64,000 bases of DNA from a virus, in IMG/VR virus record IMGVR_UViG_3300050821_003843, positions 8,918 through 72,917 of that record; one strand, given 5' to 3'. A model generated the notes under the pieces. The model was not told the origin of the DNA and did not search any database. It worked only from the letters and a program-made list of their open reading frames with translations. Below are positions 18,766-63,590 of the stretch, piece by piece. Both the position numbers and the translations under genes were made by a program. How positions within the stretch are numbered: position 1 is the first letter of the stretch; each line of letters begins with the position of its first letter.

Positions 18766-18777
18766 AGGAACAAGAAA

Positions 18778-42861: not shown

Positions 42862-45081
42862 ATGTCTCTACTGGTTGCCAAAAAACCTAAACGTACTACC
42901 TCGAATCCTCTCAAGTACGACCCAAGTGGTACAGGTCAGATCCGTCGTCAATTCATGCGACAGATAGAAGCCAAGTTCAAGGAACTGAATCGTCGTGTCT
43001 ACCAACGGTTAGTCAATGAACATCAGTATGGATTAACACAGAACTATGATCCAGCACAACCACGAGTACCAGCGGGTTCGCCAGAAGGTGGGGTTGTTTG
43101 GAGTGTCGTCATTAACAATGTGAAATCAGAGTTCTATGGTTGGAACTATGAGATCGTAGCAAATTCTCCATACGATTTCCCACAGTCAGAAAACTACCTG
43201 TCTCAGTTCAAACAATGGTTACTGAAGCAGATGAGTGAGTTGTTCTATAATGAGGATGAGAATTCATGGTGGAGGGAATATATTGCAAAGGGTTGGCAAC
43301 TTGGCGCAGCGAAGGTGTATAACGCTTGGAAATCACCAAGTGAGTTTCTCAAGTCATCGTTTAACGTACCTGTCTCGGTCAACAAGGTAAAACTCCTCGC
43401 AGCACGAGTATTCACAGAACTGGAAAACGTCACACAAGACATGGCAACTAAGATGAGTCGTGAACTTGTGGATGGATTGATTCAGGGCATGTCACCACGC
43501 GAAGTGGCTCGAAACATGTCGAAGTCGATCGAGGGGATCAGTAAAGCACGAGCGTTAGCGATTGCTCGCACGGAAGTTGTTAGATCGCACGCTAATGGAC
43601 AATTGGATACGTTAGAGCAACTGGGGATGCAGCATGTGGGCGTTGCAGTGGAGTGGTCAACATCCGGGTTAGGGATGACTAGAAAGAAGAACCCAAGTCC
43701 TTGCCCAATTTGCGCACCGATGCAAGGTGTGGTGTTCACGCTCGAAGAAGCTAGAGGTATGATCCCTAGACATCCAAATTGTCTTTGTTCCCTGATTCCG
43801 GCCAATGTAGGGGAGGACGGTAAGGGTCAAATTCGCTCGTTTAAAGGCGTGTCAGCGGCTTTAGGCAAAAGTGTCAGGGCTGAAATACCCAAGCGGTCAA
43901 AACGCACTGTAGCGACTCAGGCGAAGTTATCACGATGGGCAGGTGCAACGGCAAAGGTCAGTAAATCACGACCTGAATCAATTTTGAATATGGAACTGAT
44001 TGATAACCTGAATCCATACCACGATGCACAAGGGAGATTCTGTTCTAAAGAGAATGCTGTCAACTGGCATGAGATTAAATATCAACGTACAGAACCTATC
44101 TACACTCGCCCACAAAGTAAGCACGTAGACGAAGTGACTCACAAAGCGTTGATAGATGCGGAACTTGCCCAACAGGGCGGTGGTATTGCTGACAAAGCAA
44201 ATATGTTTCGAAGTGAGATGTCAAAGCACAATAAAGAACTCGAAGTGATTCGACAAAAACTTGTTAAGGACGTTGCTAGGCATGAACGTGAAATTGCAAA
44301 GCATGGTGCTGAATTCAAACGAATCCTTGATGAACATTCCAAAGCATCTAACGTTGATGAGAAAAAAGCAAATAAGTTGAATCGTCAAGGTATCGCATCT
44401 CACAACCGACTATCAAAAGCACGTGAGAAACTGGAGTATGCTAAGGTAGAGGCACGTAACGCACTACTCGACCACATCGGTACAAAAGATCCTGCCCCAG
44501 TCAAATTATGGGGATTGGCAGCGATGCCCGAATCGAGTGCCAAACGTGCATTAGAGGCTGCTGAGTGGTATGGGCAAATTTTATCGAAGAAGGTAGTGAG
44601 TCGACCAGACAAGGGCTATCACAGTATCGACGCTTATCCAATTGAGGATGGTCGTTCCTTTGCACAAAACAAGTCTCAGAGTAAAGTTGATTTTGGTGTT
44701 GATCATGAAATCCATATGGCACACCATGCAGCAGTGGATATTCACATCCATGAGATTGGACATACAATCGAATTTGCTAATCCTAAAATCAATGACATGA
44801 CATTAGGCTTTATTCACCATCGTGTTCAAGGCGAATTACCACAACCGTATCCATACGGTGATAAAGACGAAGTAGGATTTAAAGATGAGTTTGGTAAATC
44901 ATTTTCAGGGCATGCTAACGCAATCTATGTTGGAAAACACTACGCATCAGGCGCAACTGAGATTCTAGCTATGGGGTTTCAGAAGTTGTACAACAATCCG
45001 GGTGAATTCGCCCATAAAGATCCAGAGTATTTCAAATTCCTAATTGGTGTATTAAGGGGGGATTTCAGTGAAAGGAAATAA
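42862..45081 (+). CDS. MuF/SPP1 gp7-like head morphogenesis protein fused to a C-terminal zincin metallopeptidase
   Basis: RA..IARTE, CPIC, IP.HPNC.C; later HEIGH and EILAMG. Confidence 0.85.
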   Translation: MSLLVAKKPKRTTSNPLKYDPSGTGQIRRQFMRQIEAKFKELNRRVYQRLVNEHQYGLTQNYDPAQPRVPAGSPEGGVVWSVVINNVKSEFYGWNYEIVANSPYDFPQSENYLSQFKQWLLKQMSELFYNEDENSWWREYIAKGWQLGAAKVYNAWKSPSEFLKSSFNVPVSVNKVKLLAARVFTELENVTQDMATKMSRELVDGLIQGMSPREVARNMSKSIEGISKARALAIARTEVVRSHANGQLDTLEQLGMQHVGVAVEWSTSGLGMTRKKNPSPCPICAPMQGVVFTLEEARGMIPRHPNCLCSLIPANVGEDGKGQIRSFKGVSAALGKSVRAEIPKRSKRTVATQAKLSRWAGATAKVSKSRPESILNMELIDNLNPYHDAQGRFCSKENAVNWHEIKYQRTEPIYTRPQSKHVDEVTHKALIDAELAQQGGGIADKANMFRSEMSKHNKELEVIRQKLVKDVARHEREIAKHGAEFKRILDEHSKASNVDEKKANKLNRQGIASHNRLSKAREKLEYAKVEARNALLDHIGTKDPAPVKLWGLAAMPESSAKRALEAAEWYGQILSKKVVSRPDKGYHSIDAYPIEDGRSFAQNKSQSKVDFGVDHEIHMAHHAAVDIHIHEIGHTIEFANPKINDMTLGFIHHRVQGELPQPYPYGDKDEVGFKDEFGKSFSGHANAIYVGKHYASGATEILAMGFQKLYNNPGEFAHKDPEYFKFLIGVLRGDFSERK

Positions 45082-45325
45082 AGAACTCGGGGTGGTGAAA
45101 AAGGGTAGTAGTAAAATCGTATGGACTACGGATGGCTGGTATAGTGAGGAAGATAGGCAAGCCGCTGCTTTCTTAAACGCTGCTGGTATAGGAACAGAAG
45201 GTGTGAGTTCTATCTCACCAACGGCCTATTCTGATATTCTCATACAAGCAATGAACTTGATTCACGGTGATGGATTCAAGTGTTTTGTGAAATCCAGTTC
45301 TCAACCAGTTGGCACAGTGTACTAA
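45068..45325 (+). CDS. Small protein, candidate immunity partner of the MuF peptidase
   Basis: Overlaps the MuF stop; positional inference only. Confidence 0.45.
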   Translation: MKGNKELGVVKKGSSKIVWTTDGWYSEEDRQAAAFLNAAGIGTEGVSSISPTAYSDILIQAMNLIHGDGFKCFVKSSSQPVGTVY

Positions 45326-45344
45326 CATGAAAGAAAGTTGACAC

Positions 45345-45746
45345 ATGTTTCGCTTCATTAGAAAACTATGGGATTTGTTTTGGCTGTGGTTTGATAGAAC
45401 TATACTGACTGATGATAAAGACCATGCTCGGATTGCTGAAGGAATGGTTGGGTATCAAGGCACAACGAGATCAGAAGTAGAAAAACAAACGCGCCTGTCA
45501 TTTTCACCAGAAGAACTAGCAACGGTTGAAACACAATCCTCGCAGCAGGATTTGATTGACGTTGAGGAAATGAAGCCAGTAAGGAACATGGGCTTCGGTG
45601 AACGTGTGATTTGCACAGCCCCCAACGGTGAAAGATACTGGGTCTACCCGAAACAGCCAGATGAAGAACAACGCTATTCACACAAGACCTATGAAGAGTT
45701 TATTCTTCAAGAATACCGACGATTAGGCTTAGAAAAACGAGTTTGA
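45345..45746 (+). CDS. Hypothetical protein
   Basis: GAAAGTTGACAC-ATG leader. Confidence 0.5.
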   Translation: MFRFIRKLWDLFWLWFDRTILTDDKDHARIAEGMVGYQGTTRSEVEKQTRLSFSPEELATVETQSSQQDLIDVEEMKPVRNMGFGERVICTAPNGERYWVYPKQPDEEQRYSHKTYEEFILQEYRRLGLEKRV

Positions 45747-45769
45747 AACGACACAAGTGGAGTATAGAT

Positions 45770-46030
45770 ATGTCAGTGACACACATTGCCGGTCCAACAG
45801 TCACAGTAGGTCAAAGGAAGATACAGAGATGTTTAGTTTGTGGTGAAAAATTAGCAGACAACATCGACATTCTAAAAGGAATAGTCGCGTCACCAGATGT
45901 ACCGCCAGAATACCTACAATGGCCTCCGGGTGACTTAGTCCAACAGGACGGTAATCGAACTTCTGTGATTCAACACGTTGATGGAACCGATTTGCCAGAA
46001 GATTGTTGTATTAACATGGTGGAGGAATAA
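45770..46030 (+). CDS. Hypothetical protein (CxxC)
   Basis: GGAG RBS; H.AG...QRCLVCG. Confidence 0.5.
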   Translation: MSVTHIAGPTVTVGQRKIQRCLVCGEKLADNIDILKGIVASPDVPPEYLQWPPGDLVQQDGNRTSVIQHVDGTDLPEDCCINMVEE

Positions 46031-46034
46031 TCCA

Positions 46035-46295
46035 ATGGCAAGAGATGAGAATGGATTCACACCGACACAAGCAAGGATCGTGAATGTACTCATAGATGGT
46101 ACATGGCATCCTAAACGTGAGTTACTCTATGCAGTCGATGAACTGGCAGATGATGACAATCTACTACAGTACCATCTAAAGAACATCAAACGTATCTTGA
46201 AGCCTCGAAACGAACACATTACGTTCCAAATTCATCCCACAATGGGCACGCTCTATATGCTGACTCGTGCCTTGTCTCCATCGAATATTGGTTAG
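46035..46295 (+). CDS. Winged-helix (OmpR C-terminal-like) regulator
   Basis: FTPTQ.RI...L.DG..H...EL...L..H...I.R.L...G..Y. Confidence 0.6.
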   Translation: MARDENGFTPTQARIVNVLIDGTWHPKRELLYAVDELADDDNLLQYHLKNIKRILKPRNEHITFQIHPTMGTLYMLTRALSPSNIG

Positions 46296-46355
46296 CGGTT
46301 CGCCGTAGTTTTTACAGACAGCTATTTCAACCGCCCGAAGTTACCTGTATCACTG

Positions 46356-46390
46356 GACCCCTAGTAGCTATTTTGCTCTGGGGGTTTTTT
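46356..46390 (+). terminator. Intrinsic terminator-like hairpin
   Basis: GACCCCTAG..CTGGGGGTT stem followed by a U6 run. Confidence 0.6.
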
Positions 46391-46391
46391 C

Positions 46392-49256
46392 GTGCAGATA
46401 CACAATTCAAATCCTGAAGGTCACAATCAGTATTCCAATGTGTCTAAAGTTGCCGCTAAAGACCATATCCATGATACTGGCAAAAATGGGGTGGTTAGTT
46501 ATCTAGTAAACAAGCCAGATAGTTATTACCACAGAAAAACCGGCACGTTAGAGGCAGTTAGAGGGGGTCGACTGCGTTTATTGATGCAGACTGAAGATAA
46601 GCACGGCAACAAAACTCAAACATCTTGGCACTTCTATCCACATGAATTGACACTTCACAAAGTCACTCCAATTACAAATCGAGAATTACCACAATTAGAA
46701 TATCTTGTACAGAACCTGTCTAATGCCAAGTATAGACATGAGACGCTAAACGGTCGTAAACACATCGTTGTCCCCATGACGATGATTGTTCCCGGAGTTC
46801 TCAACGGTTCTAAGGGTTCTTTATTTTACCCCGAAGAGGAAGTTGGTAAAGATCCAACACCTTGGAACGGGATGCCGATTACCGTCTATCACCCGATTCG
46901 TAACGGGAAGAACGTCAGCGCTAAGACTGACGGTATTCTCGATGAACAAGGGATAGGTGAAGTTCGCAAAGCCAAGACCGATGGTAAACTCCGTGCAGAA
47001 GCGTGGATTGACATCGACAAAGCGAATAAGGTTGACCCACGTGTGATTCAAAATATCCAACGTGGTTTACCAACCGAAATCTCGACTGGGCTCTATACCA
47101 AAAACTCGCCAGCGCCCAAGGGGTCACACCACAACGGCAAACCCTACGAATGGATTGCTCGTGAGTATAGACCTGACCACTTGGCGATTCTACCTGACCA
47201 AAAAGGAGCATGTAGTGTGAATGACGGTTGTGGATTGGGCGTGAATGCTGAAGTAGATGAAGAGCCAATTGACAACGATTGGGCTAAATCATTGTTCCCA
47301 ACAGGGGAGAAGGAGTTTGTCTTGAAGCGGTTAGAAACTAATTCCAACCCAGAGGGGCATAATCAGTGGACGCATGGTGGTGTAACTGTCCATTTTTCTG
47401 GTGACACCTTCAAAGCTAAAGCATCTTTGAAAGACAAGGGCTTTAAATACGATGGTGACAATAAGAGATGGAGTAAAGATTTCGTAAAGGGACAGCATCC
47501 ATTACATGTAAATTCACTCCATGATGCCAAAGGCAACTTTCAAGACACGCCAGAAGGTATGCATAAGACAATCAAGTATCTTGCCAAGTCAGATAAAGTT
47601 CACATGGAATTGGAGCATCATCCAGTGTCAAATCAAGAACTAGAAATTAACTCATTCTCAGATTACAAGTGTTCTGGCGCTGAATGCAAGATGAAGTCTG
47701 AAACGGCTAACGCTCACTCAGAACTCGCAGATAAGACCGAACGTGAGAGTGACCATGCGAAAGCTGCGAGGATGCATCAAGATGCCAGTGCAGCATACAT
47801 GAGTCACGAATCAGGTGCGAAGGTTGATAAAGCAGCAGAGCACAGTACAAAAGCCGCAGAACATGCTGAAAAGGCTGGTACTAGCTTTGTGTCGTACAAC
47901 GAAGAACACGAAGAAGTTGAGAATGGTGGTCCAGGTAGTGGCCCACATCCACATATTGCTCTAGCTGTAGCTCATGCAAGAACTGCTTTGAACTACACTA
48001 GCGGACATCATACTGATAGTGACGTCTATGGTGCTCGTCTAAAAAATGCTAAATCAGGAGTCAGCCTTTCTGAAGTCGCTCAAACAGCCTCTCATTCAGC
48101 CCTAAAAGATAAAACTAGCTTGGGACACGACAAAGCAGCTTATGCGCATAATGAGGCAATGCAGACACATTCAAAAGCAATGGTTTTGCATGCCGATTCT
48201 GGTGCAGGCCACAAAGAAGCCTATCTTGCTCATGAAAAAGCCAGAGATTCACATTCGATTATGAAAAAATTCCATAGAGGTGCTTCTGCTTCACTGTCAC
48301 ACAATTCACAGGAACCAGATATGGATTTTGCAAATAACGGTGGACCCGGATCAGGACCACATCCCGGACAGATACACTCAATCAGTCATTTAGCTAATGA
48401 GAAATCTACGGCGGCTGATAATGCAACAAACAAGTTCAGAGCTAATTCTTCTATTGCAAATAAGCAAACAGCAATAGAGCACCACCAGACCGCGTTGTCT
48501 CTTCATAAGATGTCAAAAGAAGGACATAAGGAACTTGGTAATAAAGGATTGAGGGAACATCATTCTGCACAGGTTCTTCATCACACAAAACAACTCGCAT
48601 ACTTGTCAAAAGCTCCAACAAACAATTCCGACGATCCTGAAGGTTCGTCATTTAACTCCAATGAAGAAGGAGAAACTATGGCGAAACTGACGGCCAATCA
48701 ACGAAGTCAGATTATCAACAAACTCACGTCAGACAAGGGGTGTGGTTGCTATACGGCAAACGATGCTGATTATCTGCAATCACAATCTGATGAACGACTG
48801 AACGAACTTGCTATCAATGCTGAAGAGCATTTGACACACAATGAAGAAAGGGAAGAGCCAGTGGCTAAGGTAATGACAGCACAAGAATACATGGACGCAG
48901 CCCCACCAGAAATCCAGCAGATCATTGCAAATGCGGCTGAGATCATGCGTACCGAAAAGGCTGGCATCATTGCCAAGCTGGTGGCAAACATCAGTGACGC
49001 AGCGAAGAAAGCATCAATGACCACGATGCTAGAATCGAAGACGTTACCAGAAGTTAAAACCTATGCCGAACTGGCTGAATTGGCTGCGCCTAAGCCTGTC
49101 GAAAATACGCGACGTACTGTCTATGGTCCATTGGGTAATACTCCAATCGTGACGGATAATGCTGGTAAGGATACCGATGCCGAAGAAATGACTCCATCAC
49201 GATTCGATTGGAATGAAGTGGCACGGATTCCCGGCTTGGCAACCTCCAAGAACTGA
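46392..49256 (+). CDS. Prohead protease (DUF2213-like) polyprotein with inserted modules and C-terminal scaffold
   Basis: W.G.PIT..HP, EISTG, PDHLAILP...GACS..DGCG; repeated SNPEGHNQ and GGPGSGPHP modules. Confidence 0.8.
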   Translation: MQIHNSNPEGHNQYSNVSKVAAKDHIHDTGKNGVVSYLVNKPDSYYHRKTGTLEAVRGGRLRLLMQTEDKHGNKTQTSWHFYPHELTLHKVTPITNRELPQLEYLVQNLSNAKYRHETLNGRKHIVVPMTMIVPGVLNGSKGSLFYPEEEVGKDPTPWNGMPITVYHPIRNGKNVSAKTDGILDEQGIGEVRKAKTDGKLRAEAWIDIDKANKVDPRVIQNIQRGLPTEISTGLYTKNSPAPKGSHHNGKPYEWIAREYRPDHLAILPDQKGACSVNDGCGLGVNAEVDEEPIDNDWAKSLFPTGEKEFVLKRLETNSNPEGHNQWTHGGVTVHFSGDTFKAKASLKDKGFKYDGDNKRWSKDFVKGQHPLHVNSLHDAKGNFQDTPEGMHKTIKYLAKSDKVHMELEHHPVSNQELEINSFSDYKCSGAECKMKSETANAHSELADKTERESDHAKAARMHQDASAAYMSHESGAKVDKAAEHSTKAAEHAEKAGTSFVSYNEEHEEVENGGPGSGPHPHIALAVAHARTALNYTSGHHTDSDVYGARLKNAKSGVSLSEVAQTASHSALKDKTSLGHDKAAYAHNEAMQTHSKAMVLHADSGAGHKEAYLAHEKARDSHSIMKKFHRGASASLSHNSQEPDMDFANNGGPGSGPHPGQIHSISHLANEKSTAADNATNKFRANSSIANKQTAIEHHQTALSLHKMSKEGHKELGNKGLREHHSAQVLHHTKQLAYLSKAPTNNSDDPEGSSFNSNEEGETMAKLTANQRSQIINKLTSDKGCGCYTANDADYLQSQSDERLNELAINAEEHLTHNEEREEPVAKVMTAQEYMDAAPPEIQQIIANAAEIMRTEKAGIIAKLVANISDAAKKASMTTMLESKTLPEVKTYAELAELAAPKPVENTRRTVYGPLGNTPIVTDNAGKDTDAEEMTPSRFDWNEVARIPGLATSKN
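48678..49256 (+). CDS. Nested in-frame scaffold protein
   Basis: Internal AAGGAG-N5-ATG; helical and acidic; typical nested-scaffold position. Confidence 0.5.
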   Translation: MAKLTANQRSQIINKLTSDKGCGCYTANDADYLQSQSDERLNELAINAEEHLTHNEEREEPVAKVMTAQEYMDAAPPEIQQIIANAAEIMRTEKAGIIAKLVANISDAAKKASMTTMLESKTLPEVKTYAELAELAAPKPVENTRRTVYGPLGNTPIVTDNAGKDTDAEEMTPSRFDWNEVARIPGLATSKN

Positions 49257-49305
49257 TTTCACCCTTTGTGGTTTTCTGTTTATTCAACTTTAGTAGGAGA
49301 TAACG

Positions 49306-49800
49306 ATGAAGGGTGCTGAAATCCTTATCAATGGGAATCAACCTAATGGGCGATTTCTTGAAGGTACTGTGAGTGGTACGCCTGCGCCGGGTACGTGTAT
49401 GGAGGTTCTGCCAGCCACGGAACCCGTCAATGGTCGATTTACTTATCGCGCGTGTACGTCTGGTAGTAACGGTGATTCACGACCGACAACGGTGCTACTC
49501 GAAGACGCACTACAAGGCGTGACCCCGGATATCAATGGTGCAAATACCTACGTTAATGGAGCACGGTGCTTCCTCTATGTCCCTGTACCGGGGGATGAAC
49601 TGAACATGCTGGTGGAAAACATTAGTGGTACTGGAGACAGTCACGCGATTGGTGACTTACTCATGATTGACCGTGCTACAGCCGGTAATCATGGAAAGTT
49701 GCTGGTCCAAGACTCGGCCGGTCATAGTGCCCCATTTACATGTATGGAAACGAGTACGGGACTGACTGTTGATACTTTGCTGGCTTGTCGATTCGGCTGA
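49306..49800 (+). CDS. Head decoration (cement) protein
   Basis: PG, ED.LQG, PGD..N.L and GD.L motifs; between scaffold and MCP. Confidence 0.7.
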   Translation: MKGAEILINGNQPNGRFLEGTVSGTPAPGTCMEVLPATEPVNGRFTYRACTSGSNGDSRPTTVLLEDALQGVTPDINGANTYVNGARCFLYVPVPGDELNMLVENISGTGDSHAIGDLLMIDRATAGNHGKLLVQDSAGHSAPFTCMETSTGLTVDTLLACRFG

Positions 49801-49852
49801 TTCCTTTGCGGGTTGACCGCAGTAAATTTCTCAATCCCTTAGGAGGTGTATT

Positions 49853-51088
49853 ATTCTAACCCAAGACTTTATTTTGAATGGGGAAACTCATGGTGAGTTT
49901 GCCGAACTGTTGCCAGGACTGCGATTTGACGTGGGTATGATGAAGCCCTTTTTCGACTCACGCAATCAACGGTGTGTAGTTGTGAATAGTGGTCGTAAGG
50001 TGTATTCTGAAACTTTGAAAGAATACGTCCCGATCTACGAAAAGAAACTCATCAAGGATCTAGTTGCGAATGGCATCGAATCACCAGTCTTCAACGATAC
50101 TACCTTGCGTAAGCAGGAATGGATTGAGTTGGATAAGGTGATTCTCCGTGCTGCACGATATCGGTTGCGAGCATGGGCAGACCTTGCGGCGCAATCGTCA
50201 TTCGGCGGATTCGACGGTATGTCGAAAATGGTTCTCGAACACGAAACCATGTCAGATCCCGGTGAAGCAGTTCAGGATATGGATGGCTTGGCGGATGGTC
50301 GTGCGGATACACCACGTTACCAACTGCAAGGCTTGCCACTACCAATTACCCATGCAGACTTTTGGTATTCCAAACGTCGCCTGATGTTGTCACGCAACAC
50401 GGGTACGCCATTGGACACCACGATGGGTGAGTCTGCTAGTCGTCGTGTAGCAGAAATGATTGAACGTAGCCTCATTGGTAACTCCACGGGGATTACCTAT
50501 GGTGGAGCTAACAATCCAAGTTATGGTCGTACATCCACGGTGTATGGTTATACGAACTTCCCCGCTCGATTGACGTACTCAGCAGCCCATGCGCCAACAG
50601 AAGGTTCATGGACTCCTGCGACGCTATTGGCTGACGTATTGGCCGTGAAGCAGTTGTTGATTAACAACAAATTCTATGGTCCATACATGATGTACACGTC
50701 AACGGATTGGGACAAGTATCTCGACAACGATTACTACGTCAGCATCACGTCGGGGGCAGTGGCACCAACCAAAACCTTGCGTGAGCGATTACGTGAGATT
50801 GATGGGATTCAAGACGTACGTCGTTTGGATCTGTTCTTCGCCAGTGCTCCAACGGCTGGTGGTCCAGGATATGCGAACTTGGGTTTGACCCTCAATCCAT
50901 TCACGTTCATTCTGGTACAGATGACACCAGATGTTGCCCGTGCGGTGAATGGTATGGATATCAGTACCATTCAATGGGAATCTCACGGTGGATTGAGATT
51001 GAACTTCAAGGTTCTGGCAATTCAGGTTCCACAACTCCGTGCTGACTATTACAACAACTGTGGGATCGCCCAAGCCACGGTAACTTGA
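49853..51088 (+). CDS. Major capsid protein (HK97 fold, linocin/encapsulin-like), probable AUU start
   Basis: TLR..EW..LD, PLPI.H.D, R.VAE..E, YGYTNFP, YGPY; perfect AGGAGGT 5 nt before ATT 49853. Confidence 0.88.
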   Translation: MLTQDFILNGETHGEFAELLPGLRFDVGMMKPFFDSRNQRCVVVNSGRKVYSETLKEYVPIYEKKLIKDLVANGIESPVFNDTTLRKQEWIELDKVILRAARYRLRAWADLAAQSSFGGFDGMSKMVLEHETMSDPGEAVQDMDGLADGRADTPRYQLQGLPLPITHADFWYSKRRLMLSRNTGTPLDTTMGESASRRVAEMIERSLIGNSTGITYGGANNPSYGRTSTVYGYTNFPARLTYSAAHAPTEGSWTPATLLADVLAVKQLLINNKFYGPYMMYTSTDWDKYLDNDYYVSITSGAVAPTKTLRERLREIDGIQDVRRLDLFFASAPTAGGPGYANLGLTLNPFTFILVQMTPDVARAVNGMDISTIQWESHGGLRLNFKVLAIQVPQLRADYYNNCGIAQATVT

Positions 51089-51139
51089 TCGAGTGTGCTT
51101 CTATGAAAGAAGACATATGTGGATGACTAGGAGAATGTA

Positions 51140-51340
51140 ATGAAAGAAAAGAAACTGAAAACAGACGCCAATGTAGTTGTAAGGAAGTTCAAATGTCTTG
51201 CAACTCACACGGAAATCAAGACTGATGAAGACGGGGATGAGACTCAAATCGACTATAAGATCGGTGATATCATCGAATCTCCAGTCGATTTGGTTAAACA
51301 ATTCCCCGGCAAGTTTGAGTTGGTAGAGGATAAGAAGTGA
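51140..51340 (+). CDS. Small head-associated protein
   Basis: Y..GD..ES..DL...F..KF motif, echoed in 51636-52130. Confidence 0.5.
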   Translation: MKEKKLKTDANVVVRKFKCLATHTEIKTDEDGDETQIDYKIGDIIESPVDLVKQFPGKFELVEDKK

Positions 51341-51516
51341 TGTCCAAACTCGTTTCCATCATGACGTTGTTCTGTGTCTTACTTGTGATGGTCCAAGCCG
51401 TTCAGGCACGTCATCATAAGCACAAACACCGTACCAGCGTGTACGTGACAACCGTTGCCCCTGTCGTGACGACACACACGACAACCACTTCGATTCGTAC
51501 GATGCGAATTCGATAG
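51340..51516 (+). CDS. Small secreted peptide (not in ORF track)
   Basis: Sec-type signal ending AVQA, then RHHKHKHR and a Thr-rich tail. Confidence 0.5.
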   Translation: MSKLVSIMTLFCVLLVMVQAVQARHHKHKHRTSVYVTTVAPVVTTHTTTTSIRTMRIR

Positions 51517-51532
51517 CTTGCCGTCCCAGCGC

Positions 51533-51595
51533 AGCCACTGACCTTTAAGCAAGGGCTTTGTGTCAACTTTCACCTAAGCTTAGGGGTCAGTGGTT
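51533..51595 (+). ncRNA. Long hairpin with loop antisense to the GAAAG(T)TGACAC RBS class
   Basis: 18-bp stem with G-U pairs; AGG/CCT-closed loop GCTTTGTGTCAACTTTCA. Confidence 0.6.
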
Positions 51596-51635
51596 TTCTA
51601 ACAATGAAATGTGACAAATACACTAAGGATTCAAA

Positions 51636-52130
51636 ATGACAGCTACTATGCAACGTCCTATTCCTCACAATGTCGAAGGTCGTCCCCTCTACAAGTTCCG
51701 CTGTAACATTGGTCAATGTGTGGCCGTGAACAAACTGGGTGAAGCAATGATGTACGATCAAGGCCAACGAATTGAAACCCCTACGCATCTCACTAAGAGA
51801 TTCGGTCAGGAAAAATTTACTCGCCTGAGTGATAGTGATCCAGTTGATGAGGGTCGATTGTTCGTGGCAGAAATGGACGCTAAAGCCCTTGAAGATCTGA
51901 ACAAGGATGATACAAACGAGTATCGTCATCACACGCCAGAAGCCCCACCATCTCCATTCGATGAGGATCGGGAATCGGGTATCGCGGCAACTTATAAGAG
52001 TATGTCGATTGATGACCTGACGAAGATTGCTCGTGATGAGGAGATTCCTTTGGGTACTGCCAAAACCAAGAAGGACATCATCAACAAGATCATGGATCAT
52101 AACAACTTGGCAGCGCCACAAAACCAATAA
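51636..52130 (+). CDS. Head-associated protein with C-terminal Rho_N/HeH-like domain
   Basis: MSI.DL..IA....I......K.DII..I. Confidence 0.6.
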   Translation: MTATMQRPIPHNVEGRPLYKFRCNIGQCVAVNKLGEAMMYDQGQRIETPTHLTKRFGQEKFTRLSDSDPVDEGRLFVAEMDAKALEDLNKDDTNEYRHHTPEAPPSPFDEDRESGIAATYKSMSIDDLTKIARDEEIPLGTAKTKKDIINKIMDHNNLAAPQNQ

Positions 52131-52168
52131 TTTGGTTATTCGCTCCGCAAAACCAGTGAGGTTCGTTG

Positions 52169-52561
52169 ATGTCACGTACCAGTCCCACAGCAGTACAGAA
52201 CATCCTTGGCACAGAATACGACGTGACGAATCGTCCATCACTCAATGGATTCATCGACACGGCCTCAGCAGACGTAGATGACGTATTGGCTAATGATGTT
52301 CAAGGATTGATGACACCCAATAGGCTGGAACTTATTGAACGTTGGCTGGCGGCACACTACTACCAGATTAGTGACCCCGGATATAAGTCAAGGACGACAG
52401 CGGGGGCAAGTGGTTCGTTCAATGGGGAAACCACAATGGTATTTATGTCAACTCGGTACGGTCAACAGGCATGCGCAATAGATTCTACTGGTTGGCTGGC
52501 GAAACGAAGTGATGAAGTCACTAAGGGTTCACGTCGAATGGTCCAGTTCTTTGTAGGATAA
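52169..52561 (+). CDS. Head-tail adaptor
   Basis: IE.WLAAH, ST.YGQ.A...D..G.L. Confidence 0.7.
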   Translation: MSRTSPTAVQNILGTEYDVTNRPSLNGFIDTASADVDDVLANDVQGLMTPNRLELIERWLAAHYYQISDPGYKSRTTAGASGSFNGETTMVFMSTRYGQQACAIDSTGWLAKRSDEVTKGSRRMVQFFVG

Positions 52562-52566
52562 CAATT

Positions 52567-52917
52567 ATGAATCGTCGATCATTTGTTGGTTTGTGTGTGT
52601 CTGCTATTGCTATGCTTCCATTGACTGGCTTAGCAAGTACTCCGGATAAGATGAAATTAACAATCCATCACGAACCAGAACATGGATGGACTAGAGTTAC
52701 TGGTTCTTTTGAAGCCAAAAAGAAATTCCATCATGTCTGGCAAACCAAACTTTGGCCAGAATGGCAACAGCATATGCGTCCAATGGAAGAACGAACTTCT
52801 TTTCTATGGAACATGATGGAAGGCTATGATGCTTTGTTTTCAACGCGATCAAAAGAGTGTGCTAGTGCTCTTGAGTTTGCGATTAAAAATTGTGGTTGTG
52901 TAATCACAGTTATCTAA
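52567..52917 (+). CDS. Tat-signal protein
   Basis: MNRRSF followed by a hydrophobic stretch. Confidence 0.55.
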   Translation: MNRRSFVGLCVSAIAMLPLTGLASTPDKMKLTIHHEPEHGWTRVTGSFEAKKKFHHVWQTKLWPEWQQHMRPMEERTSFLWNMMEGYDALFSTRSKECASALEFAIKNCGCVITVI

Positions 52918-52927
52918 TGGATAAACT

Positions 52928-53293
52928 ATGCCACCCTTAGAAACTTGTGACTTGAGACAGACTGCCGTGTTATGGAATGTAACGGGGCAGGATCGACATG
53001 GGAAACCAACAGTTTCCAATCCTATTCAAATTCGAGTCAGGTGGGTGTTAAATGACAGTCAAGTTGTTGATCCATTTGGGAACACTGTGGCATCTAGTGG
53101 AACTGTCATCACTGACCGTCCCATTGATAACATGGCTCTTATGTGGTTAGGTAAGTTAGTCGATTTACCATCACCTCCAACGGATATCCATCAGGTGATT
53201 AAGGTGAACACCACACCAGACATCAAGAATCGGAATACTCGATTCGACTACATTCTGATGCGATATGCACAAGCCCTACCAACGACGGGTTAA
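52928..53293 (+). CDS. Head closure/stopper protein
   Basis: Q.AV.W...G.D..G.P....P..I..RW. Confidence 0.65.
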   Translation: MPPLETCDLRQTAVLWNVTGQDRHGKPTVSNPIQIRVRWVLNDSQVVDPFGNTVASSGTVITDRPIDNMALMWLGKLVDLPSPPTDIHQVIKVNTTPDIKNRNTRFDYILMRYAQALPTTG

Positions 53294-53296
53294 ATC

Positions 53297-53740
53297 ATGG
53301 AAGTCAAACTTGATCTACTGGGTAGTGACAGTCTCAAAAAGAAGTTGTTAGCGATTGCGCAAAAGTATGGTCAACCCGATCAAGTCAGCGTGACAGTTGG
53401 GTTTACTCAACGCTATGCAATCTACGTACACGAGGTACAAGCGAAACACGTAGTCGGTCAATGGAAGTACCTTGAAACACCCGCTAGAGGGATGACTCGA
53501 CAAACTTGCCGCACGATTGAAACAGCATTACGTAGAGGAGCTCCTATGCTCCAAGCCCTGATGCTGGCAGGACTGGGGATTCAACGTGCTGCACAGATAC
53601 TGACGCCAGTCGATACAAGTGCACTAAAAGCAAGCGCCTTTACCTGCCCGACACAAGATGTAGAGTCAGTCAGTCAAGCGGCTTTTCAAACATCAGAACA
53701 GATTCGACTCGCCCAACAGAGTACAAAACCTAATCCATAG
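53297..53740 (+). CDS. Neck protein (HK97 gp10-like)
   Basis: YAIYVHE, KYLE.P, PVDT..L..S. Confidence 0.7.
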   Translation: MEVKLDLLGSDSLKKKLLAIAQKYGQPDQVSVTVGFTQRYAIYVHEVQAKHVVGQWKYLETPARGMTRQTCRTIETALRRGAPMLQALMLAGLGIQRAAQILTPVDTSALKASAFTCPTQDVESVSQAAFQTSEQIRLAQQSTKPNP

Positions 53741-53750
53741 AAAGTGACAA

Positions 53751-54164
53751 ATGGCCGGAGTTATTAACGGACAAGCAACCGCGATTGCGAATAGACTGAG
53801 TAGTGAGGATAACACCAAGTTCCCTATTGCTCTCATCATTCCAATCGCATCACTCTTACTCCAGTTCTTGGGTGATTGTTGGAAAAATGCTCCTCCAGCG
53901 GGTGTACCGGGCAGTATCAACCCGAGTGATTACATTCGAGATCACTACGATCCAGCAACCGATACCTTCGAGGATGTGATTGTCGGGCAAGTGAGAGGAC
54001 AGACACGTCGTTCTATCAGAATCAATGCTCGCACAAATGGTTCACCACGATTGAACACATTCACGCAAGACGAAATCAATCAACTCAGTGTTGAAGCATT
54101 GAAACAAGTGATGAATACTCCACAAGTCTCTGCCAGTTGTTTGGCAGAAATTGATAACCACTAA
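53751..54164 (+). CDS. Membrane-associated hypothetical protein
   Basis: GAAAGTGACAA-ATG leader; hydrophobic segment ending in Cys. Confidence 0.5.
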   Translation: MAGVINGQATAIANRLSSEDNTKFPIALIIPIASLLLQFLGDCWKNAPPAGVPGSINPSDYIRDHYDPATDTFEDVIVGQVRGQTRRSIRINARTNGSPRLNTFTQDEINQLSVEALKQVMNTPQVSASCLAEIDNH

Positions 54165-54183
54165 TTAAGAAAGTGACACAAAC

Positions 54184-54501
54184 ATGGATCATCCAACCGT
54201 TACAGTTCAGTCAGGGACACCAGAAGCCCCCACAACACAAACGTTTGTCATCAGTCCAGCCAACATTGCCTTGATTCTACAACAATTGATTAGTGCAGAA
54301 CCTAAGATCGTAGCGATCATGTCAGAACTCGGTCCATTCGCTGCTGTACTACCTGCACCGTTCAATATTCTGAGTAATCCACTAATTCAGGAAGCCGCTA
54401 GTGCCCTCCCTACACTACTGCCTCTATTACAGAACTTGGAAAATATTCTCAATCAAATGGCTCCTCCAGTACCCGTCACACCACCCCCAGTAGCGACTTG
54501 A
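54184..54501 (+). CDS. Hydrophobic Pro-rich hypothetical protein
   Basis: GAAAGTGACACAAAC-ATG leader. Confidence 0.5.
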   Translation: MDHPTVTVQSGTPEAPTTQTFVISPANIALILQQLISAEPKIVAIMSELGPFAAVLPAPFNILSNPLIQEAASALPTLLPLLQNLENILNQMAPPVPVTPPPVAT

Positions 54502-54539
54502 TTGAGTATCTCGTTATTCAGAAAAAGAAAGTTGACAAA

Positions 54540-55409
54540 ATGATTGAAACGACACCCGCCATCCAAACAACTCCGACCCCATTACCAACGTGGGTACAAG
54601 GACTAATTGGTGTATTGATTGCCATTACGGGGGTTTTAGCAGGCCCACATGTACTGCCTAACCTCCAACCTACGCCAAAACCCCCCATAATCACGCCTAA
54701 CGTCACGCCAGTACCAAAACCGAACAATACCCCAACCCCTACACCAATGCCCGCAAAAGCGATTGTAGCGACTGTAAACGGTACAGTTGTACACGGTTTA
54801 GTCGAAGCGGGACAACTTGTCGTGGTGAAGGGTGAAGGCGGTCTGAAAGTCGCTGCAACGTCTTATCCACCAAGTAGTGCCAGTATCCATAAGTTTTCAG
54901 TAGAGGAATTAGCTTGTGTCCTTAAACCCGGTGCAACGCTCCAGGTGGTCGGTTATGAGAACGACTCTGATCCGATCACGATGTCAATTGCAGCGAATCA
55001 GGCACCACAACCTCCACCAGTTAATCCACAACCTAATCCTCAACCACAACCAACCCCTCCAACACCAGTCGATCCAAGTCCTACACCAGTACGCACTGGC
55101 AAGGTACTGATTTCGATTGTTGAAGATCCAAATAATAGACCGCCAGAACTGGCGATGCTCCTATCCAATTTCACCACATGGAATAAGTACAAGGAAGCAG
55201 GCAATGAATGGATCTTGTTTCCACAGAACTCGAAGGAAAATCAAGGTGTTCTCGCTATCAACGCATTGGCAACAAATAATGTATTGGTCCCCGGCATCGT
55301 TATTCAGGATTTGAGTACGAAGGTTGTACTCTATGCTGGTCCTCTCAAAGGGAAAACGATTAAGGATGTAACGGCATTAGTTAATCAATATACGGGAGGA
55401 AATCTATAA
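54540..55409 (+). CDS. TM-anchored Pro-rich protein with thioredoxin-like C-terminal domain
   Basis: TM segment, two Pro/Thr linkers; GAAAGTTGACA leader. Confidence 0.5.
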   Translation: MIETTPAIQTTPTPLPTWVQGLIGVLIAITGVLAGPHVLPNLQPTPKPPIITPNVTPVPKPNNTPTPTPMPAKAIVATVNGTVVHGLVEAGQLVVVKGEGGLKVAATSYPPSSASIHKFSVEELACVLKPGATLQVVGYENDSDPITMSIAANQAPQPPPVNPQPNPQPQPTPPTPVDPSPTPVRTGKVLISIVEDPNNRPPELAMLLSNFTTWNKYKEAGNEWILFPQNSKENQGVLAINALATNNVLVPGIVIQDLSTKVVLYAGPLKGKTIKDVTALVNQYTGGNL

Positions 55410-56257
55410 TGGAAGAACTGACTCCAGTCATTGATGGTAGTGGTGAGGAACGTCGACTCGGACTATTGATGCCAGACGAAACAAACGTCTGCGCAGCCCC
55501 ATTCCTCGAAGACTCGATCCCTAACAACATTCTGACCGATGATCAGATCATGCAATTGATTACTGATCCCGGTCGTACGGCTGCTGTCGACATTTTCGAT
55601 GAACATTGGGTTAAGGAAGGGGACCAGAAGCAACATGGCTCGTGTAATGGTTGGGCTGCTGGTCAACTATTGAGTAAGACCCGATTTAAGCGAGGATTAC
55701 AAGACGGTATCGTGATGTCTGGTAGTTACGTGTACTCGTGGATCAATAATGGGCAAGACAATGGATCAGCATTAGATCGAGCAATGGCCGAACTTCAATC
55801 ACATGGGGCTCCACCAGCCTCGATGTGTGATGCGAATAAGATCTATCGAAAAGACACTCAACAGTTTGATGCAGAAGCGATGAAACACTTAGGCTTTGAT
55901 GCCTATGCGATCAAGACCAAACGTGGATTGGATAGTGCCTTAGCGTTAGGCTTTATCGTGGGGGTCGCGGTACAGGTCAACAACGCGTTCATGAATTACA
56001 AGGGGCAAGGATTGATCCCTGTCTCTACTGGTAACGGTAATCATGCTATCCATGCTGATGATATTCGCTGGAACCCAACTACTAAGCAATATGAGTACAG
56101 ACCAGTCAATAATTGGAACGTGACATGGGGCAATCGTGGTTGGGGCTGGACGACATTCGCTAGTTTCCAACAAACTATGCTACGTAATGAGAATGGTCAA
56201 CAATCAGGCGTCCACCAGTTCTACACCATTGTTTCGACGCAAGAGGCAGGAATGTGA
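55409..56257 (+). CDS. Papain-like (C1) cysteine peptidase
   Basis: DQ...GSC.GWA, GNHA, N.W...WG..G. Confidence 0.85.
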   Translation: MEELTPVIDGSGEERRLGLLMPDETNVCAAPFLEDSIPNNILTDDQIMQLITDPGRTAAVDIFDEHWVKEGDQKQHGSCNGWAAGQLLSKTRFKRGLQDGIVMSGSYVYSWINNGQDNGSALDRAMAELQSHGAPPASMCDANKIYRKDTQQFDAEAMKHLGFDAYAIKTKRGLDSALALGFIVGVAVQVNNAFMNYKGQGLIPVSTGNGNHAIHADDIRWNPTTKQYEYRPVNNWNVTWGNRGWGWTTFASFQQTMLRNENGQQSGVHQFYTIVSTQEAGM

Positions 56258-56258
56258 A

Positions 56259-56753
56259 ATGTGGAAATCTTACTTATTGGACTATTCTTCGGGTTTGTGG
56301 CAGGCGTCACTACTGCTGTTGCTATTGCCGCTCTCGTCGAATACACGCGCAAATGAGCCAATCTTTAAACCAACTGGCATCTATGCTGAAAAGTCACTTG
56401 CTGAACAATTTGTGGAAAGGATAGATGCTGTAAAAAAGTATCAAGAAAAAGAAGCTAAGAACGTCCCTCTAACAAGTATCGACCAATCACTTGGACCACA
56501 GTCAAGAAGACCAAAAGAAAATTATCACGCCTATAGTCCTTGGTATGTTGATGGACACAACACTTCAGACAGTCACTTGATCCATACGCACGGGGTGAGT
56601 CCTGAAACACTCAAGGGATTAACTCAAGATGAAAAGAATCGACTTCATGGGAAGATGCACGGTGAACAGGCTCGCGTATCAATGCCAATCGTTCGACAGA
56701 CACAATCAGGCGGATGCCCCAATGGCGTTTGCCCCTTAAATCGAAGGAGATGA
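56259..56753 (+). CDS. Secreted protein with His-rich motif and GGCPNGVCP tail
   Basis: Signal-like LLLLLLP; HL...HG ... LH...H. Confidence 0.5.
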   Translation: MWKSYLLDYSSGLWQASLLLLLLPLSSNTRANEPIFKPTGIYAEKSLAEQFVERIDAVKKYQEKEAKNVPLTSIDQSLGPQSRRPKENYHAYSPWYVDGHNTSDSHLIHTHGVSPETLKGLTQDEKNRLHGKMHGEQARVSMPIVRQTQSGGCPNGVCPLNRRR

Positions 56754-57088
56754 AAGTGACAGATCCAACTCCAACTCCATCAGGTACGGGTAACGGTGGC
56801 GTTAGTCCAGTAGCGTTCTGGTCCGCGATTATCACGTTACTCGGTAGTACGATTATTCTACCAATGTGGCAAATGTGGTTGTCTAATCAACACGAAATCA
56901 ATCGAGCGGAACAGGCAAAGGCAACCACAGTCGCCGTTGCGAAGGTACTTGACAATCAAGAACAGACGCATGAAGCCATCAAGGAAGTTTCCATGAAACA
57001 AACTGAGGCTGCTGAAAAAGTAGAAGAAGTTAAAGCGGCAACAAACGTTTTAGTAGATAAAGTTGACACAGCAAAGGGAAACAAATGA
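56750..57088 (+). CDS. TM plus coiled-coil protein
   Basis: One TM segment; EV..KQ..AAEKV.EV shared with 57311-57835. Confidence 0.55.
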   Translation: MKVTDPTPTPSGTGNGGVSPVAFWSAIITLLGSTIILPMWQMWLSNQHEINRAEQAKATTVAVAKVLDNQEQTHEAIKEVSMKQTEAAEKVEEVKAATNVLVDKVDTAKGNK

Positions 57089-57297
57089 CAAATATGTTAC
57101 TACTCGCCCAAGGGGGCTTTGGAATTATGCACTGGATCATCATTGTGATCGTGATTGCTGCTTGTGTGGGCATCATGTACGTTGCTCTTAATCAATTTGG
57201 TATTGCCATTCCGAATTGGGTCATCCAAATATTCTGGATCTGTGTTGTGGCCTTTGTAGCAATCCTCGCAATCAAATTTCTGATCGGTCTCGCGTAA
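57085..57297 (+). CDS. Two-TM holin-like protein
   Basis: Two long hydrophobic helices in 70 aa. Confidence 0.5.
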   Translation: MTNMLLLAQGGFGIMHWIIIVIVIAACVGIMYVALNQFGIAIPNWVIQIFWICVVAFVAILAIKFLIGLA

Positions 57298-57310
57298 TCG
57301 GTATATTTGA

Positions 57311-57835
57311 ATGGAGTCGGTGATGCTACTTGCTGCGATTGGACCAGATGGTTGGGTACTGATTATTGGAGCAATTGGACTAGCTCTAACGAATATTATC
57401 ACGAGTACCGTACAGATCATCATCGGGTATTTTCAAGAAAAGAACAAAATCCTACGTGAGGCGTTGATTGCACAACGGGTCAACGAAGTCGCTGTTAAAC
57501 AAGATCTAGCTACGGAAAAAGTAGCGGAGGTTTCTACTAAGCAGGATATCGCAGCCGAAAAGGTTGCAGAAGTTGCTACGAAGCAGGCGCAAGTCACGGA
57601 AGATACAAGTCAGATCCATCAATACTTGGTGGATAAGGTCGACAAAGTTGAAGAAATTGCGATCAAGACTCAAGCCTACGTGAACGGTGCTACAACTGTC
57701 CATTTGAAAAAGTTAGCGGAGGCACTGCATCGAGTTGCCCAACTGACTAAATCAGCATCAGATATCCATGCGGCCGACTTGGCGCAACAAGAGCTGGAAA
57801 GACACTTAGAAAACCAACCGAAAAAGGAAGCATGA
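57311..57835 (+). CDS. TM plus coiled-coil protein with 14-aa repeats
   Basis: V.EV..KQ..A.EK repeated three times. Confidence 0.55.
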   Translation: MESVMLLAAIGPDGWVLIIGAIGLALTNIITSTVQIIIGYFQEKNKILREALIAQRVNEVAVKQDLATEKVAEVSTKQDIAAEKVAEVATKQAQVTEDTSQIHQYLVDKVDKVEEIAIKTQAYVNGATTVHLKKLAEALHRVAQLTKSASDIHAADLAQQELERHLENQPKKEA

Positions 57836-58113
57836 TGACTGAAGAATCTGGGACGGTTAAGCATAAAGAACCACAATCGTTTACAGATAAGATCATCTTC
57901 GCTCAAAAGGTAAATACGGCTGTTACTGGTGGAGGCTTGCTGGTATTGACACTTGCCTTCATGGCACAAACGTGTGTTATCGCCATGCTCCATCAGACAC
58001 AGATGAACAAACTCGATGGACTGCAAGTACACCAGACAACGAACGTCGAGCGACCTAGAACAAATGAAGACAATGCTTATTCTATTCTCAAAAAACAAGG
58101 ACTAGTTGAATGA
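57832..58113 (+). CDS. Single-TM protein
   Basis: Hydrophobic central helix; AAGGA RBS. Confidence 0.45.
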   Translation: MMTEESGTVKHKEPQSFTDKIIFAQKVNTAVTGGGLLVLTLAFMAQTCVIAMLHQTQMNKLDGLQVHQTTNVERPRTNEDNAYSILKKQGLVE

Positions 58114-58346
58114 CTTGTGATGAAATCAATGCCGCTATTGCAGCCAATCAGGCACTTGTTACCGCCATCACTGCCACAATTTTAGCGGATGACGCGGCGG
58201 TAACAGCAGCAGGAGCAGCGGCTACAGCAGCAATGACCGCCTACAATGCTGCGATTACCCAATACAACAGTGATGTGACTCTACTGGGTTCTTACAATGG
58301 AATGATTACGATGTATCAATCTATGCTGTCAATGCAGGGTTGCTGA
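58110..58346 (+). CDS. Ala-rich helical protein
   Basis: Terminal Cys residues; Ala-rich coiled coil. Confidence 0.45.
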   Translation: MTCDEINAAIAANQALVTAITATILADDAAVTAAGAAATAAMTAYNAAITQYNSDVTLLGSYNGMITMYQSMLSMQGC

Positions 58347-58348
58347 AC

Positions 58349-58555
58349 ATGGTCACAATGACAACGAGTGGATTGATACTCACCGTGTGTTGTATCATCA
58401 TTGCTATTTGGGATTTGATTGCCGTTAAACGTTATGGAGTGAAGTACAGTGTCAGTTATTACATCCAACAGACTGGCGTCACGCATCCCACGTTGATATT
58501 TGCAATGGGGTTTTTGTGTGGCCACTTTTTCGCCGGAATGTCAATAAACCAGTAG
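58349..58555 (+). CDS. Two-TM holin-like protein
   Basis: WD....SVS...P...F..G.L.GHFF pattern. Confidence 0.5.
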
Positions 58556-58571
58556 ACTAAACAAAATCTCT

Positions 58572-60182: not shown

Positions 60183-60185
60183 AAT

Positions 60186-60671
60186 ATGACATTCGCACTA
60201 ATCCCAGTCCAACTAGATCAAGATGTTGTCACCGAATGCAACAATCTGATGAACATTTTCAACGGGTACGCCCAAAATGATGAAGTACGCTTCAAACAAG
60301 GTTGGGAGATATTTTGGGCTTCAGACCGTGATGTGACTCGAATGCAAGCCATCTTGGACACATTCGCCACGCATACTTATATCGACCCGGCAACAGGATT
60401 GACGGTCAACGCTTTGACAGCTTACTTTACAAAGGCACTTGCTGAAATTGCAGATGTCAAACGCGAATTGCCGACAGCGTTCTCGGATGCAGTCTATGAA
60501 GTAACGGCAGTAATTACGAATGGTGTTGTCAGTGGAGCAACAGCTTTGCAACCAGACGGTACACTATATCAGAAATATCTATTTCCGGGGTGGTATTACA
60601 CAGTCGACAATACAGGACGCATGATTGTTAGTGGACCCGTTGTGTACGGAATCTTAACACCAGTCTCTTGA
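60186..60671 (+). CDS. Hypothetical protein (possible fibre chaperone)
   Basis: Directly follows the fibre gene. Confidence 0.45.
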   Translation: MTFALIPVQLDQDVVTECNNLMNIFNGYAQNDEVRFKQGWEIFWASDRDVTRMQAILDTFATHTYIDPATGLTVNALTAYFTKALAEIADVKRELPTAFSDAVYEVTAVITNGVVSGATALQPDGTLYQKYLFPGWYYTVDNTGRMIVSGPVVYGILTPVS

Positions 60672-60682
60672 AAGATTTGACA

Positions 60683-60925
60683 ATGAAAGAACTAACGGAC
60701 GAGCAAGTGAAACAATTTCAAGACACTGCTGACGCAGAACAAGTTGAAGAATCAAAATCTGACAGACTTAAACGTGAGTCTATGGAAGATAAGCGCGAAC
60801 GTGAACGTGAATTCACTGAAATTGTGAATGAAGCATCAAAACGCTTACGTGTGGCAATGATCCCAAAGATGGATATTGTTGGTAATACTGTAAGTTCAAC
60901 GATCATTATTCAGGCGCAAGACTGA
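60683..60925 (+). CDS. Small coiled-coil protein
   Basis: GAAAGATTTGACA-ATG leader. Confidence 0.45.
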   Translation: MKELTDEQVKQFQDTADAEQVEESKSDRLKRESMEDKREREREFTEIVNEASKRLRVAMIPKMDIVGNTVSSTIIIQAQD

Positions 60926-62243: not shown

Positions 62244-62259
62244 TTAGGAGAAATGGAAC

Positions 62260-62742: not shown

Positions 62743-62800
62743 TCAGTGGATAGTGACCCAAGGATGGGATTTTCTTTACTTATGAAAGTTGACACGAACA

Positions 62801-63570: not shown

Positions 63571-63590
63571 TTGAATAGAATGGAGTGTGT

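Follow-up and report, generated by a model that had tools for sequence, protein, structure and literature searches.

Probable near-cognate AUU and AUC start codons on the capsid, resolvase and DNA polymerase genes of a soil phage

We analysed a 64-kb stretch of phage DNA (45% G+C; hereafter the window), which comprises bases 8918-72917 of one 72,917-bp contig, IMG/VR virus record IMGVR_UViG_3300050821_003843, from a soil phage with a complete 72.9-kb genome. Comparative evidence indicates that three of its genes, encoding the major capsid protein (MCP), a RuvC-like Holliday junction resolvase and a family A DNA polymerase (PolA), are translated from the near-cognate codons AUU, AUU and AUC, respectively, and that the tape measure protein (TMP) is probably read from AUU too. 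We put the probability of this reading at roughly three in four. In the frames of MCP, the resolvase and PolA, the open stretch up to and including the point where conservation begins contains no ATG, GTG or TTG, and the next such codon lies inside conserved sequence. The ATT or ATC aligns with Met1 of the homologues in all three. The accompanying Shine-Dalgarno (SD) sequences and spacers are AGGAGGT and 5 nucleotides (nt) for MCP, AAAGGA and 8 nt for the resolvase, GAAGGA and 8 nt for PolA and GGAG and 5 nt for TMP; only the MCP SD is strong. MCP, PolA and the resolvase are otherwise intact, with 90-100% coverage against their homologues. An initial annotation, made from the letters of the window, had proposed AUU starts on four essential genes. 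This holds for MCP and the resolvase, neither of which has a usable canonical start and both of which have an SD-led ATT at the position of the homologues' Met1. PolA, counted among the four, has a different codon, ATC 18778.

The MCP gene (49853-51088, + strand; 411 codons if read from ATT) matches Pfam family PF19774 (DUF6260, an HK97-type MCP family) with 35.4 bits against a cut-off of 26.6. The same family is precomputed on most of the 120 listed MCP homologues, and tblastn matches of MCP in phage records carry the annotation 'major capsid protein'. The frame is open after a TAA at 49823, i.e. from 9 codons before the proposed start, and contains ATT at both 49850 and 49853. AGGAGGT at 49841-49847 ends 5 nt before ATT 49853 and 26 nt from the first TTG, with strings and coordinates exactly as the initial annotation had given them. 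Counting one more base yields the 8-nt extended SD AGGAGGTG (49841-49848, + strand), recognised by its sequence and its duplex energy, which ends 4 nt before the ATT. AGGAGG occurs 6 times on the + strand, the capsid SD being one of these. We found 1819 MCP homologues, and M[FLY][TV]QDF[IV]LNG opens nearly all of the best 120. The closest one listed, P0001 (90% identity), opens with MLTQDFILNGETHGEFAELLP, identical to the window translated from 49853; P0001 and P0517, both 90% identical MCPs, begin MLTQDF. Moreover, Asp5 is invariant in a 40-sequence alignment. The proposed start codon, ATT 49853-49855 (+ strand), is thus placed by SD spacing, by the homologues' Met1 and by an RNA-library contig described below. 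Two other codons were rejected. A start at TTG 49874-49876 (+ strand), the first canonical in-frame codon, would remove the conserved MxxQDFI segment including the invariant Asp5, and the duplex there, at that distance from the SD, is -0.7 kcal/mol. ATT 49850 lies 2 nt from the SD and would add a residue seen in no homologue.

The duplex before ATT 49853 amounts to -14.1 kcal/mol, computed, as are all energies given here, with a generic anti-SD from which the host's own may differ. It outranks the MCP SDs of all 115 relatives (1st of 116; the relatives' median is -8.0 and their best -13.3 kcal/mol) and is among the three or four strongest of this genome. The initial annotation had called a poor start on the most abundant protein paradoxical, and the strength of this SD softens the paradox. 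Between the preceding gene and MCP lies a nine-codon mini open reading frame (ORF) at 49813-49842, running from TTG 49813 to TAG 49840-49842, the stop of which overlaps the MCP SD. It might supply terminating ribosomes to the MCP ATT.

The resolvase gene (10208-10750, + strand; 180 codons from ATT) was identified by structure. An AlphaFold model (pLDDT 89.7) gave Foldseek matches to MOC1 (6jrg_A, E 2.5e-8, TM 0.67/0.73) and, at E of about 5e-5, to RuvC (4ld0_B, 1hjr_A) and phage 4ktw_B, with an overall range of 2.5e-8 to 6e-5. No Pfam family, RuvC PF02075 included, matched the protein at E <= 0.001, and PF02075 is present on distant resolvase homologues only. A TAA at 10193 precedes the frame, which is open from 10196, 4 codons before the proposed start codon ATT (10208-10210, + strand). 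The SD-like AAAGGA (10194-10199, + strand) has a duplex of -5.6 kcal/mol. There is no canonical codon upstream of TTG 10253, which is the sole one available there and encodes the L of FLGIDPG. Read from ATT 10208 the protein begins (M)PLPTKKKQLSDTIFLGIDPG, and homologues open MP(K)...[YF]LGIDPG. In the model, strand beta-1 spans residues 14-19 and ends in the Asp of GID (D19), which we take to be the first catalytic Asp of RuvC, and TTG 10253 corresponds to residue 16, inside this strand. TTG 10253 was rejected as the start, since it would cut strand beta-1 of the model, and the earlier claim that it truncates the catalytic strand is borne out. The duplex at this TTG is -5.8 kcal/mol with an extended anti-SD and -2.2 kcal/mol with the core anti-SD.

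PolA (18778-20877, + strand; 699 codons from ATC) is a family A DNA polymerase gene with an N-terminal, DnaQ-like 3'-5' exonuclease motif, matching PF00476 at E 7e-29 (101.3 bits). Its frame is open only from 18766, 4 codons ahead of the ATC and after a TGA at 18763-18765, and its translation there is R N K K I L G I D T E T S G. An SD-like GAAGGA (18764-18769, + strand; duplex -5.7 kcal/mol) overlaps this in-frame TGA, and the proposed start codon, ATC 18778-18780 (+ strand), is placed by SD spacing and by Met1 of the homologues. We found 1016 PolA homologues, which open with M-x-x-x-D-T-E-T-T-G. D5 and E7 of the D-x-E exonuclease motif, presumably 'Exo I', are invariant in 32 aligned sequences. 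GTG 18847, the first canonical codon, was rejected as the start, for it loses both of these invariant residues and has a duplex of +0.2 kcal/mol.

A census of start codons across related genomes, proposed in the initial annotation, was carried out at the DNA level by locating the conserved N-terminus in each relative and then seeking a canonical start nearby. The 161 MCP loci reduced to 123 non-redundant entries including the window, 7 of them not assessable; all 115 assessable relatives have a canonical start (100 ATG, 11 GTG and 4 TTG), and the window alone has none. From 80 PolA loci we obtained 75 non-redundant relatives. In 74 a canonical start lies within -25 to +4 codons, and in the 75th an open extension of basic character leads back to an ATG 52 codons upstream. 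The resolvase was located at 80 loci, giving 71 assessable relatives (1 was without the motif); in all 71 a canonical codon precedes the G of GIDPG by at least 2 residues (4-5 in most), and the window has none there. In sum, none of 261 orthologues (115 MCP, 75 PolA and 71 resolvase) is without a canonical start. Among conserved ORFs, 2 of 44 are truly start-less here (PolA and MCP) compared with 0 of about 184 in five complete relatives; each of the four flags raised among the 184 came down to an overshoot (1-3 residues) or to a single spurious match. A second criterion applied to these relatives flagged only overshoots and a start-less -1 frameshift tail chaperone ORF. The Fisher p-value is 0.037 (2/44 vs 0/184), or 0.007 with the resolvase added, and is indicative only, the genes having been chosen for their oddness. 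The conservation check extended to ORFs with homologues in the five complete relatives, which about 60 ORFs of this genome lack. A scan of SDs and gaps over about 119 ORFs gave no convincing further case of a non-canonical start. ATA 15387 was considered and rejected, as a relative supports ATG 15426. By a crude and noisy estimate, to which we give no weight, the share of ATG versus GTG/TTG does not differ from that of relatives.

Because every relative, including those with 90%-identical MCPs, has a canonical start, the ATT/ATC state is, on this comparison, derived and specific to this genome. The MCP, PolA and resolvase codons are each one third-position change from ATG. ATG has 7 non-canonical neighbours at one step; with random hits among these, all three codons would be AUH with a chance of (3/7)^3 = 0.08. 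This restriction to AUH and the intact, full-length reading frames agree better with retained function than with decay. We suggest that the ATH codons are recent, lineage-specific substitutions from an ancestral ATG which may be tolerated, and no old conserved regulatory device. One capsid homologue, P0005 (85% MCP identity), is called as a protein of 392 aa from MRPFFD, while P0518 and P0519, from the same 90% cluster, open with MFTQDFILNN. P0005 could be another capsid gene that lacks a canonical start, or else reflect a local error.

Consensus error at three start codons is very unlikely. The initial annotation had named reads showing ATG as a refutation, and ATG was not seen at the MCP start. 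One public run, X1, a soil metatranscriptome library stored as contigs, contains part of the region and was compared with 44001-64000 of the window. Seventeen X1 contigs match this interval, all at least 99% alike, and one of 403 nt spans 49551-49953 with 0 differences, so the MCP start reads ATT. Only two differences from the window were seen in the X1 contigs (50148 and 56987), both G>T and each in one low-depth contig. By exact look-ups we traced this phage to three contigs from two archives (72,917, 73,031 and 60,544 bp). On these three assemblies MCP is called as 404 aa (TTG 49874) or 385 aa (GTG 49931, Val27), never from residue 1 of the full 411. PolA is called from GTG 18847, with 676 aa instead of 699, and is shortened on the 73,031-bp contig as well, whilst the resolvase is called with 165 aa (TTG 10253; 72,917-bp contig) or 151 aa (a later ATG, 10295; 73,031-bp contig) instead of 180. 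Given the exact X1 match and the shortened calls on three assemblies, a sequencing error at the MCP start was rejected as unlikely. The 72,917-bp contig carries a 27-nt repeat at both ends, and the virus record is listed with direct terminal repeats and a CheckV completeness of 100%. All database versions of the three proteins are truncated: MCP lacks an invariant Asp, PolA its exonuclease D-x-E motif and the resolvase a portion of its catalytic strand. Pipelines limited to ATG, GTG and TTG will repeat the error.

For TMP we lean, by a modest degree, towards a start at ATT 63591, which is favoured by homologue lengths and by the SD. The 5' part of the gene (63591-64000, + strand) reaches the window's end, and the gene resumes at the start of the contig, giving an ORF of 748 codons across the circular junction. 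The match to PF20155 (TMP_3) scores 25.1 bits against a cut-off of 41, with only 136 aa within the window; 13030 homologues were found, of 500-1000 aa, and the gene is located after ORFs for G/GT chaperones. After TAG 63576 the frame reads TAG AAT GGA GTG TGT ATT, and the start region (63582-63593, + strand) holds GGAG at 63582-63585, GTG at 63585-63587 and ATT at 63591-63593. The GGAG overlaps the GTG and lies 5 nt before the ATT, in agreement with the initial annotation, and the duplex is -6.4 kcal/mol for ATT versus -1.6 kcal/mol for GTG. Of 89 homologues whose alignment reaches the N-terminus, 15 have Met1 at the ATT position, 64 have it 1-3 residues further in and 1 has it at that of the GTG. 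Counted from Met1, the conserved G of G(xxGD) comes at a distance of 12-15 in 59 of 71 homologues; this distance matches the ATT reading (15) in 14 of the 71 and the GTG reading (17) in none. Weighing against an AUU start here, the canonical GTG 63585 is available in frame two codons before the ATT, and the earlier claim for TMP is therefore retained as a preference only. Just 5' of TMP lies a pair of tail assembly chaperone ORFs (62789-63256 and 63178-63570). Over its conserved stretch (…KKLAKRYEGWIWLAF…) the second is without a start codon, and it is start-less in all five complete relatives too, as would suit the product of a programmed -1 frameshift (G/GT).

The sequence data show that canonical starts are missing, that ATT and ATC line up with Met1, that the SDs are suitably spaced and that the sequence is reproducible. 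From these we infer that ribosomes start at ATT and ATC, how efficiently they may do so and why three changes might have occurred in one genome. In the mechanism that we propose, the SD-anti-SD duplex 5-8 nt upstream would position the 30S subunit, and the initiator tRNA would pair with the A and U of the codon, the third-position mismatch being tolerated. AUU and AUC would belong to the class of codons that initiation factor 3 (IF3) disfavours, yet does not exclude. For the resolvase and PolA, a weak codon with a modest SD probably just gives low output, plausible for enzymes. For MCP, the loss caused by the weak codon would be offset by the 8-nt extended SD, the strength of which fits compensation for a weak start codon. 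IF3 is described as requiring Watson-Crick pairs at positions 1 and 2 and as more lenient at position 3 (PMC10158994). In E. coli extracts, AUU mRNAs reach 28-74% of the AUG level, and less with added IF3 or competition, whilst a phage hydrolase with such a start reaches 5% in E. coli in vivo (PMC5499595). The AUU and AUA starts of S. aureus give about 10% of AUG in reporters, all with extended SDs (PMC13009471).

Several points weigh against translation from these codons. AUU and AUC are poor wherever they have been measured, which sits badly with capsid demand. The resolvase and PolA SDs are modest and add little alone, and the SD energies rest on a generic anti-SD, not the host's. The ATT/ATC codons are conserved in no relative, so no selective value is shown. 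Finally, the three assemblies and X1 possibly come from one site or campaign and are not fully independent, and the RNA library may carry DNA. It is highly improbable that the genome is artefactual or defective, with assembly errors or (near-)lethal mutations at the starts and either the downstream TTG/GTG in use or the genes dead. The uniqueness of the ATT/ATC state to this genome would suit this, as would the TTG 7 codons downstream in MCP, the choice of downstream codons by database gene finders and the two G>T differences in X1, which are the same kind of change as ATG-to-ATT (n=2). However, shortened calls are seen on all three assemblies, which come from two archives, and a contig of a separate RNA library reads ATT; the downstream starts have no SD and lose invariant residues, and the genome is complete, with its terminal repeat and full CheckV score. 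Unlike in decay, three start codons are altered yet there is no frameshift or stop in the 1290 codons of the three genes. That the N-termini arise by another route, be it read-through of a stop, fusion to an upstream ORF by frameshifting or reinitiation once a short upstream ORF has terminated, is barely credible. An in-frame TGA does lie 12 nt before the PolA ATC and a TAA 12 nt before the resolvase ATT, and the mini-ORF ends within the MCP SD. However, the homologues start exactly at the aligned Met, so that no extension is needed, reinitiation would still require an AUH start codon, and the preceding genes stop 53, 29 and 230 nt short of the three codons. An alternative genetic code or read-through was rejected, as all three stops are in ordinary use among well-scoring ORFs (TGA 34, TAA 22, TAG 11) and no recoding is apparent.

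Translation from near-cognate starts by the mechanism above does not by itself explain three changes in one lineage. Laxer start-codon proofreading is the obvious candidate cause. On present evidence, relaxed discrimination of the third start-codon position in the host or infected cell, such that AUH is efficient and ATG-to-ATH changes are nearly neutral, is unlikely. IF3 might be lax, the initiator tRNA unusual or IF3 blunted by a phage protein; any of these would underlie, not replace, initiation at the near-cognate codons. Three or four such starts in about 119 ORFs, set beside none in 261 orthologues and none in 184 conserved ORFs elsewhere, would be accounted for in this way, as would the presence of one on the most abundant virion protein. 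In annotated prokaryote genomes a switch from AUG to AUU was recorded for 1 of 61,358 starts reconstructed as ancestral AUG, i.e. very rarely in ordinary lineages (PMC5622118), and AUU and AUC are reportedly frequent in Mycoplasma gallisepticum (PMC5499595). Against relaxed discrimination, the very strong MCP SD suggests that an ATT start carries a cost, the use of ATG versus GTG/TTG appears ordinary by our noisy method, and no tRNA or tmRNA gene was found in the phage genome. Nor was an IF3 homologue found among the phage proteins in a search of the IF3_N and IF3_C families, most ORFs being unannotated. A scan of a genome collection with a view to the host gave only three matches, all whole phage contigs binned into metagenome-assembled genomes (MAGs). 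The stronger form, in which this phage-host pair uses AUU and AUC as efficient starts sufficient for MCP through loosened third-position proofreading in the host or infected cell, is rather unlikely; if true, ATG-to-ATH changes would drift in freely, and gene finders would systematically truncate genes of that host lineage and its phages. The initial annotation had also raised a deliberate gate, in the manner of infC, whereby output would rise as IF3 is titrated during infection. In support, AUU initiation is IF3-sensitive in E. coli, added IF3 nearly halving the activity of AUU mRNAs in extracts (PMC5499595), and the output of the S. aureus AUA gene ccpN changes with growth medium (PMC13009471). 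However, such a gate is improbable and we did not retain it: the codons recur in none of the 261 orthologues, even at 90% MCP identity, the genes are split between a replication module (10-21 kb) and a virion module (49-64 kb), which a single timing signal fits poorly, and no phage factor touching IF3 was found within the IF3 families searched.

To our knowledge, near-cognate starts have been thought very rare and confined to low-output regulators. In E. coli, near-cognate initiation is established for the classical AUU-initiated genes infC and pcnB. The phage sites resemble E. coli infC (which encodes IF3) and pcnB in that an SD-led AUU start, discriminated against by IF3, would limit output (PMC5499595). 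Unlike the phage codons, however, the AUU of infC is conserved and autoregulatory; the phage AUU/AUC was seen in 0 of 261 relatives' genes and no regulatory loop is evident. A closer parallel for MCP may be S. aureus cvfC1 (AUU), ccpN (AUA) and infC (AUA), where a weak codon is accompanied by an extended, start-proximal SD that directs selection (PMC13009471). Those S. aureus genes are regulators of low output, their codons are conserved and their starts were mapped by Ribo-RET (PMC13009471), whereas MCP is the most abundant virion protein, its codon is not conserved and its start is proposed from sequence; the phage resolvase and PolA, moreover, have only short SDs. Campylobacter phage vB_CcoM-IBB_35 is annotated with 4.2% ATT, 3.1% ATC and 8.2% ATA starts (PMC3322345). 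That is a statement of annotation, in contrast to the sites described here, which are fixed by homologue N-termini with no alternative codon. Belinky, Rogozin and Koonin (2017) reported that suboptimal starts have stronger or better conserved SDs (PMC5622118), with which the first rank of the phage MCP SD among 116 agrees. However, their study concerns GUG and UUG and takes starts from annotation that rarely allows AUU (PMC5622118). No description of an AUU-initiated phage capsid gene was found in the literature searched, most subscription journals and supplements lying outside its coverage. The sites are new instances of known near-cognate initiation, unusual in that they fall on essential and highly expressed genes of a phage and number three or four in one genome. 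Three essential phage genes, the capsid gene included, are fixed by comparative evidence as having non-canonical starts. They allow tests of how far an extended SD rescues AUU and of whether some hosts proofread starts less strictly.

Nearly all genes of the phage lie on the + strand, and a Pfam scan of the window covered 10 proteins. Pfam and homology place the portal at 40190-42691 and a Mu-F-like protein at 42862-45081. Phage contigs of this capsid family (64-74 kb; L162-L164) sit inside MAGs labelled Opitutaceae and Dehalococcoidia, a placement that is probably a binning artefact and no guide to the host. Directly 5' of the capsid module is an ORF of 954 aa (46392-49256), with no Pfam match. 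It contains the internal repeats NSNPEGHNQ and NGGPGSGPHP, each present twice, and its position suggests a candidate prohead protease or scaffold fusion.

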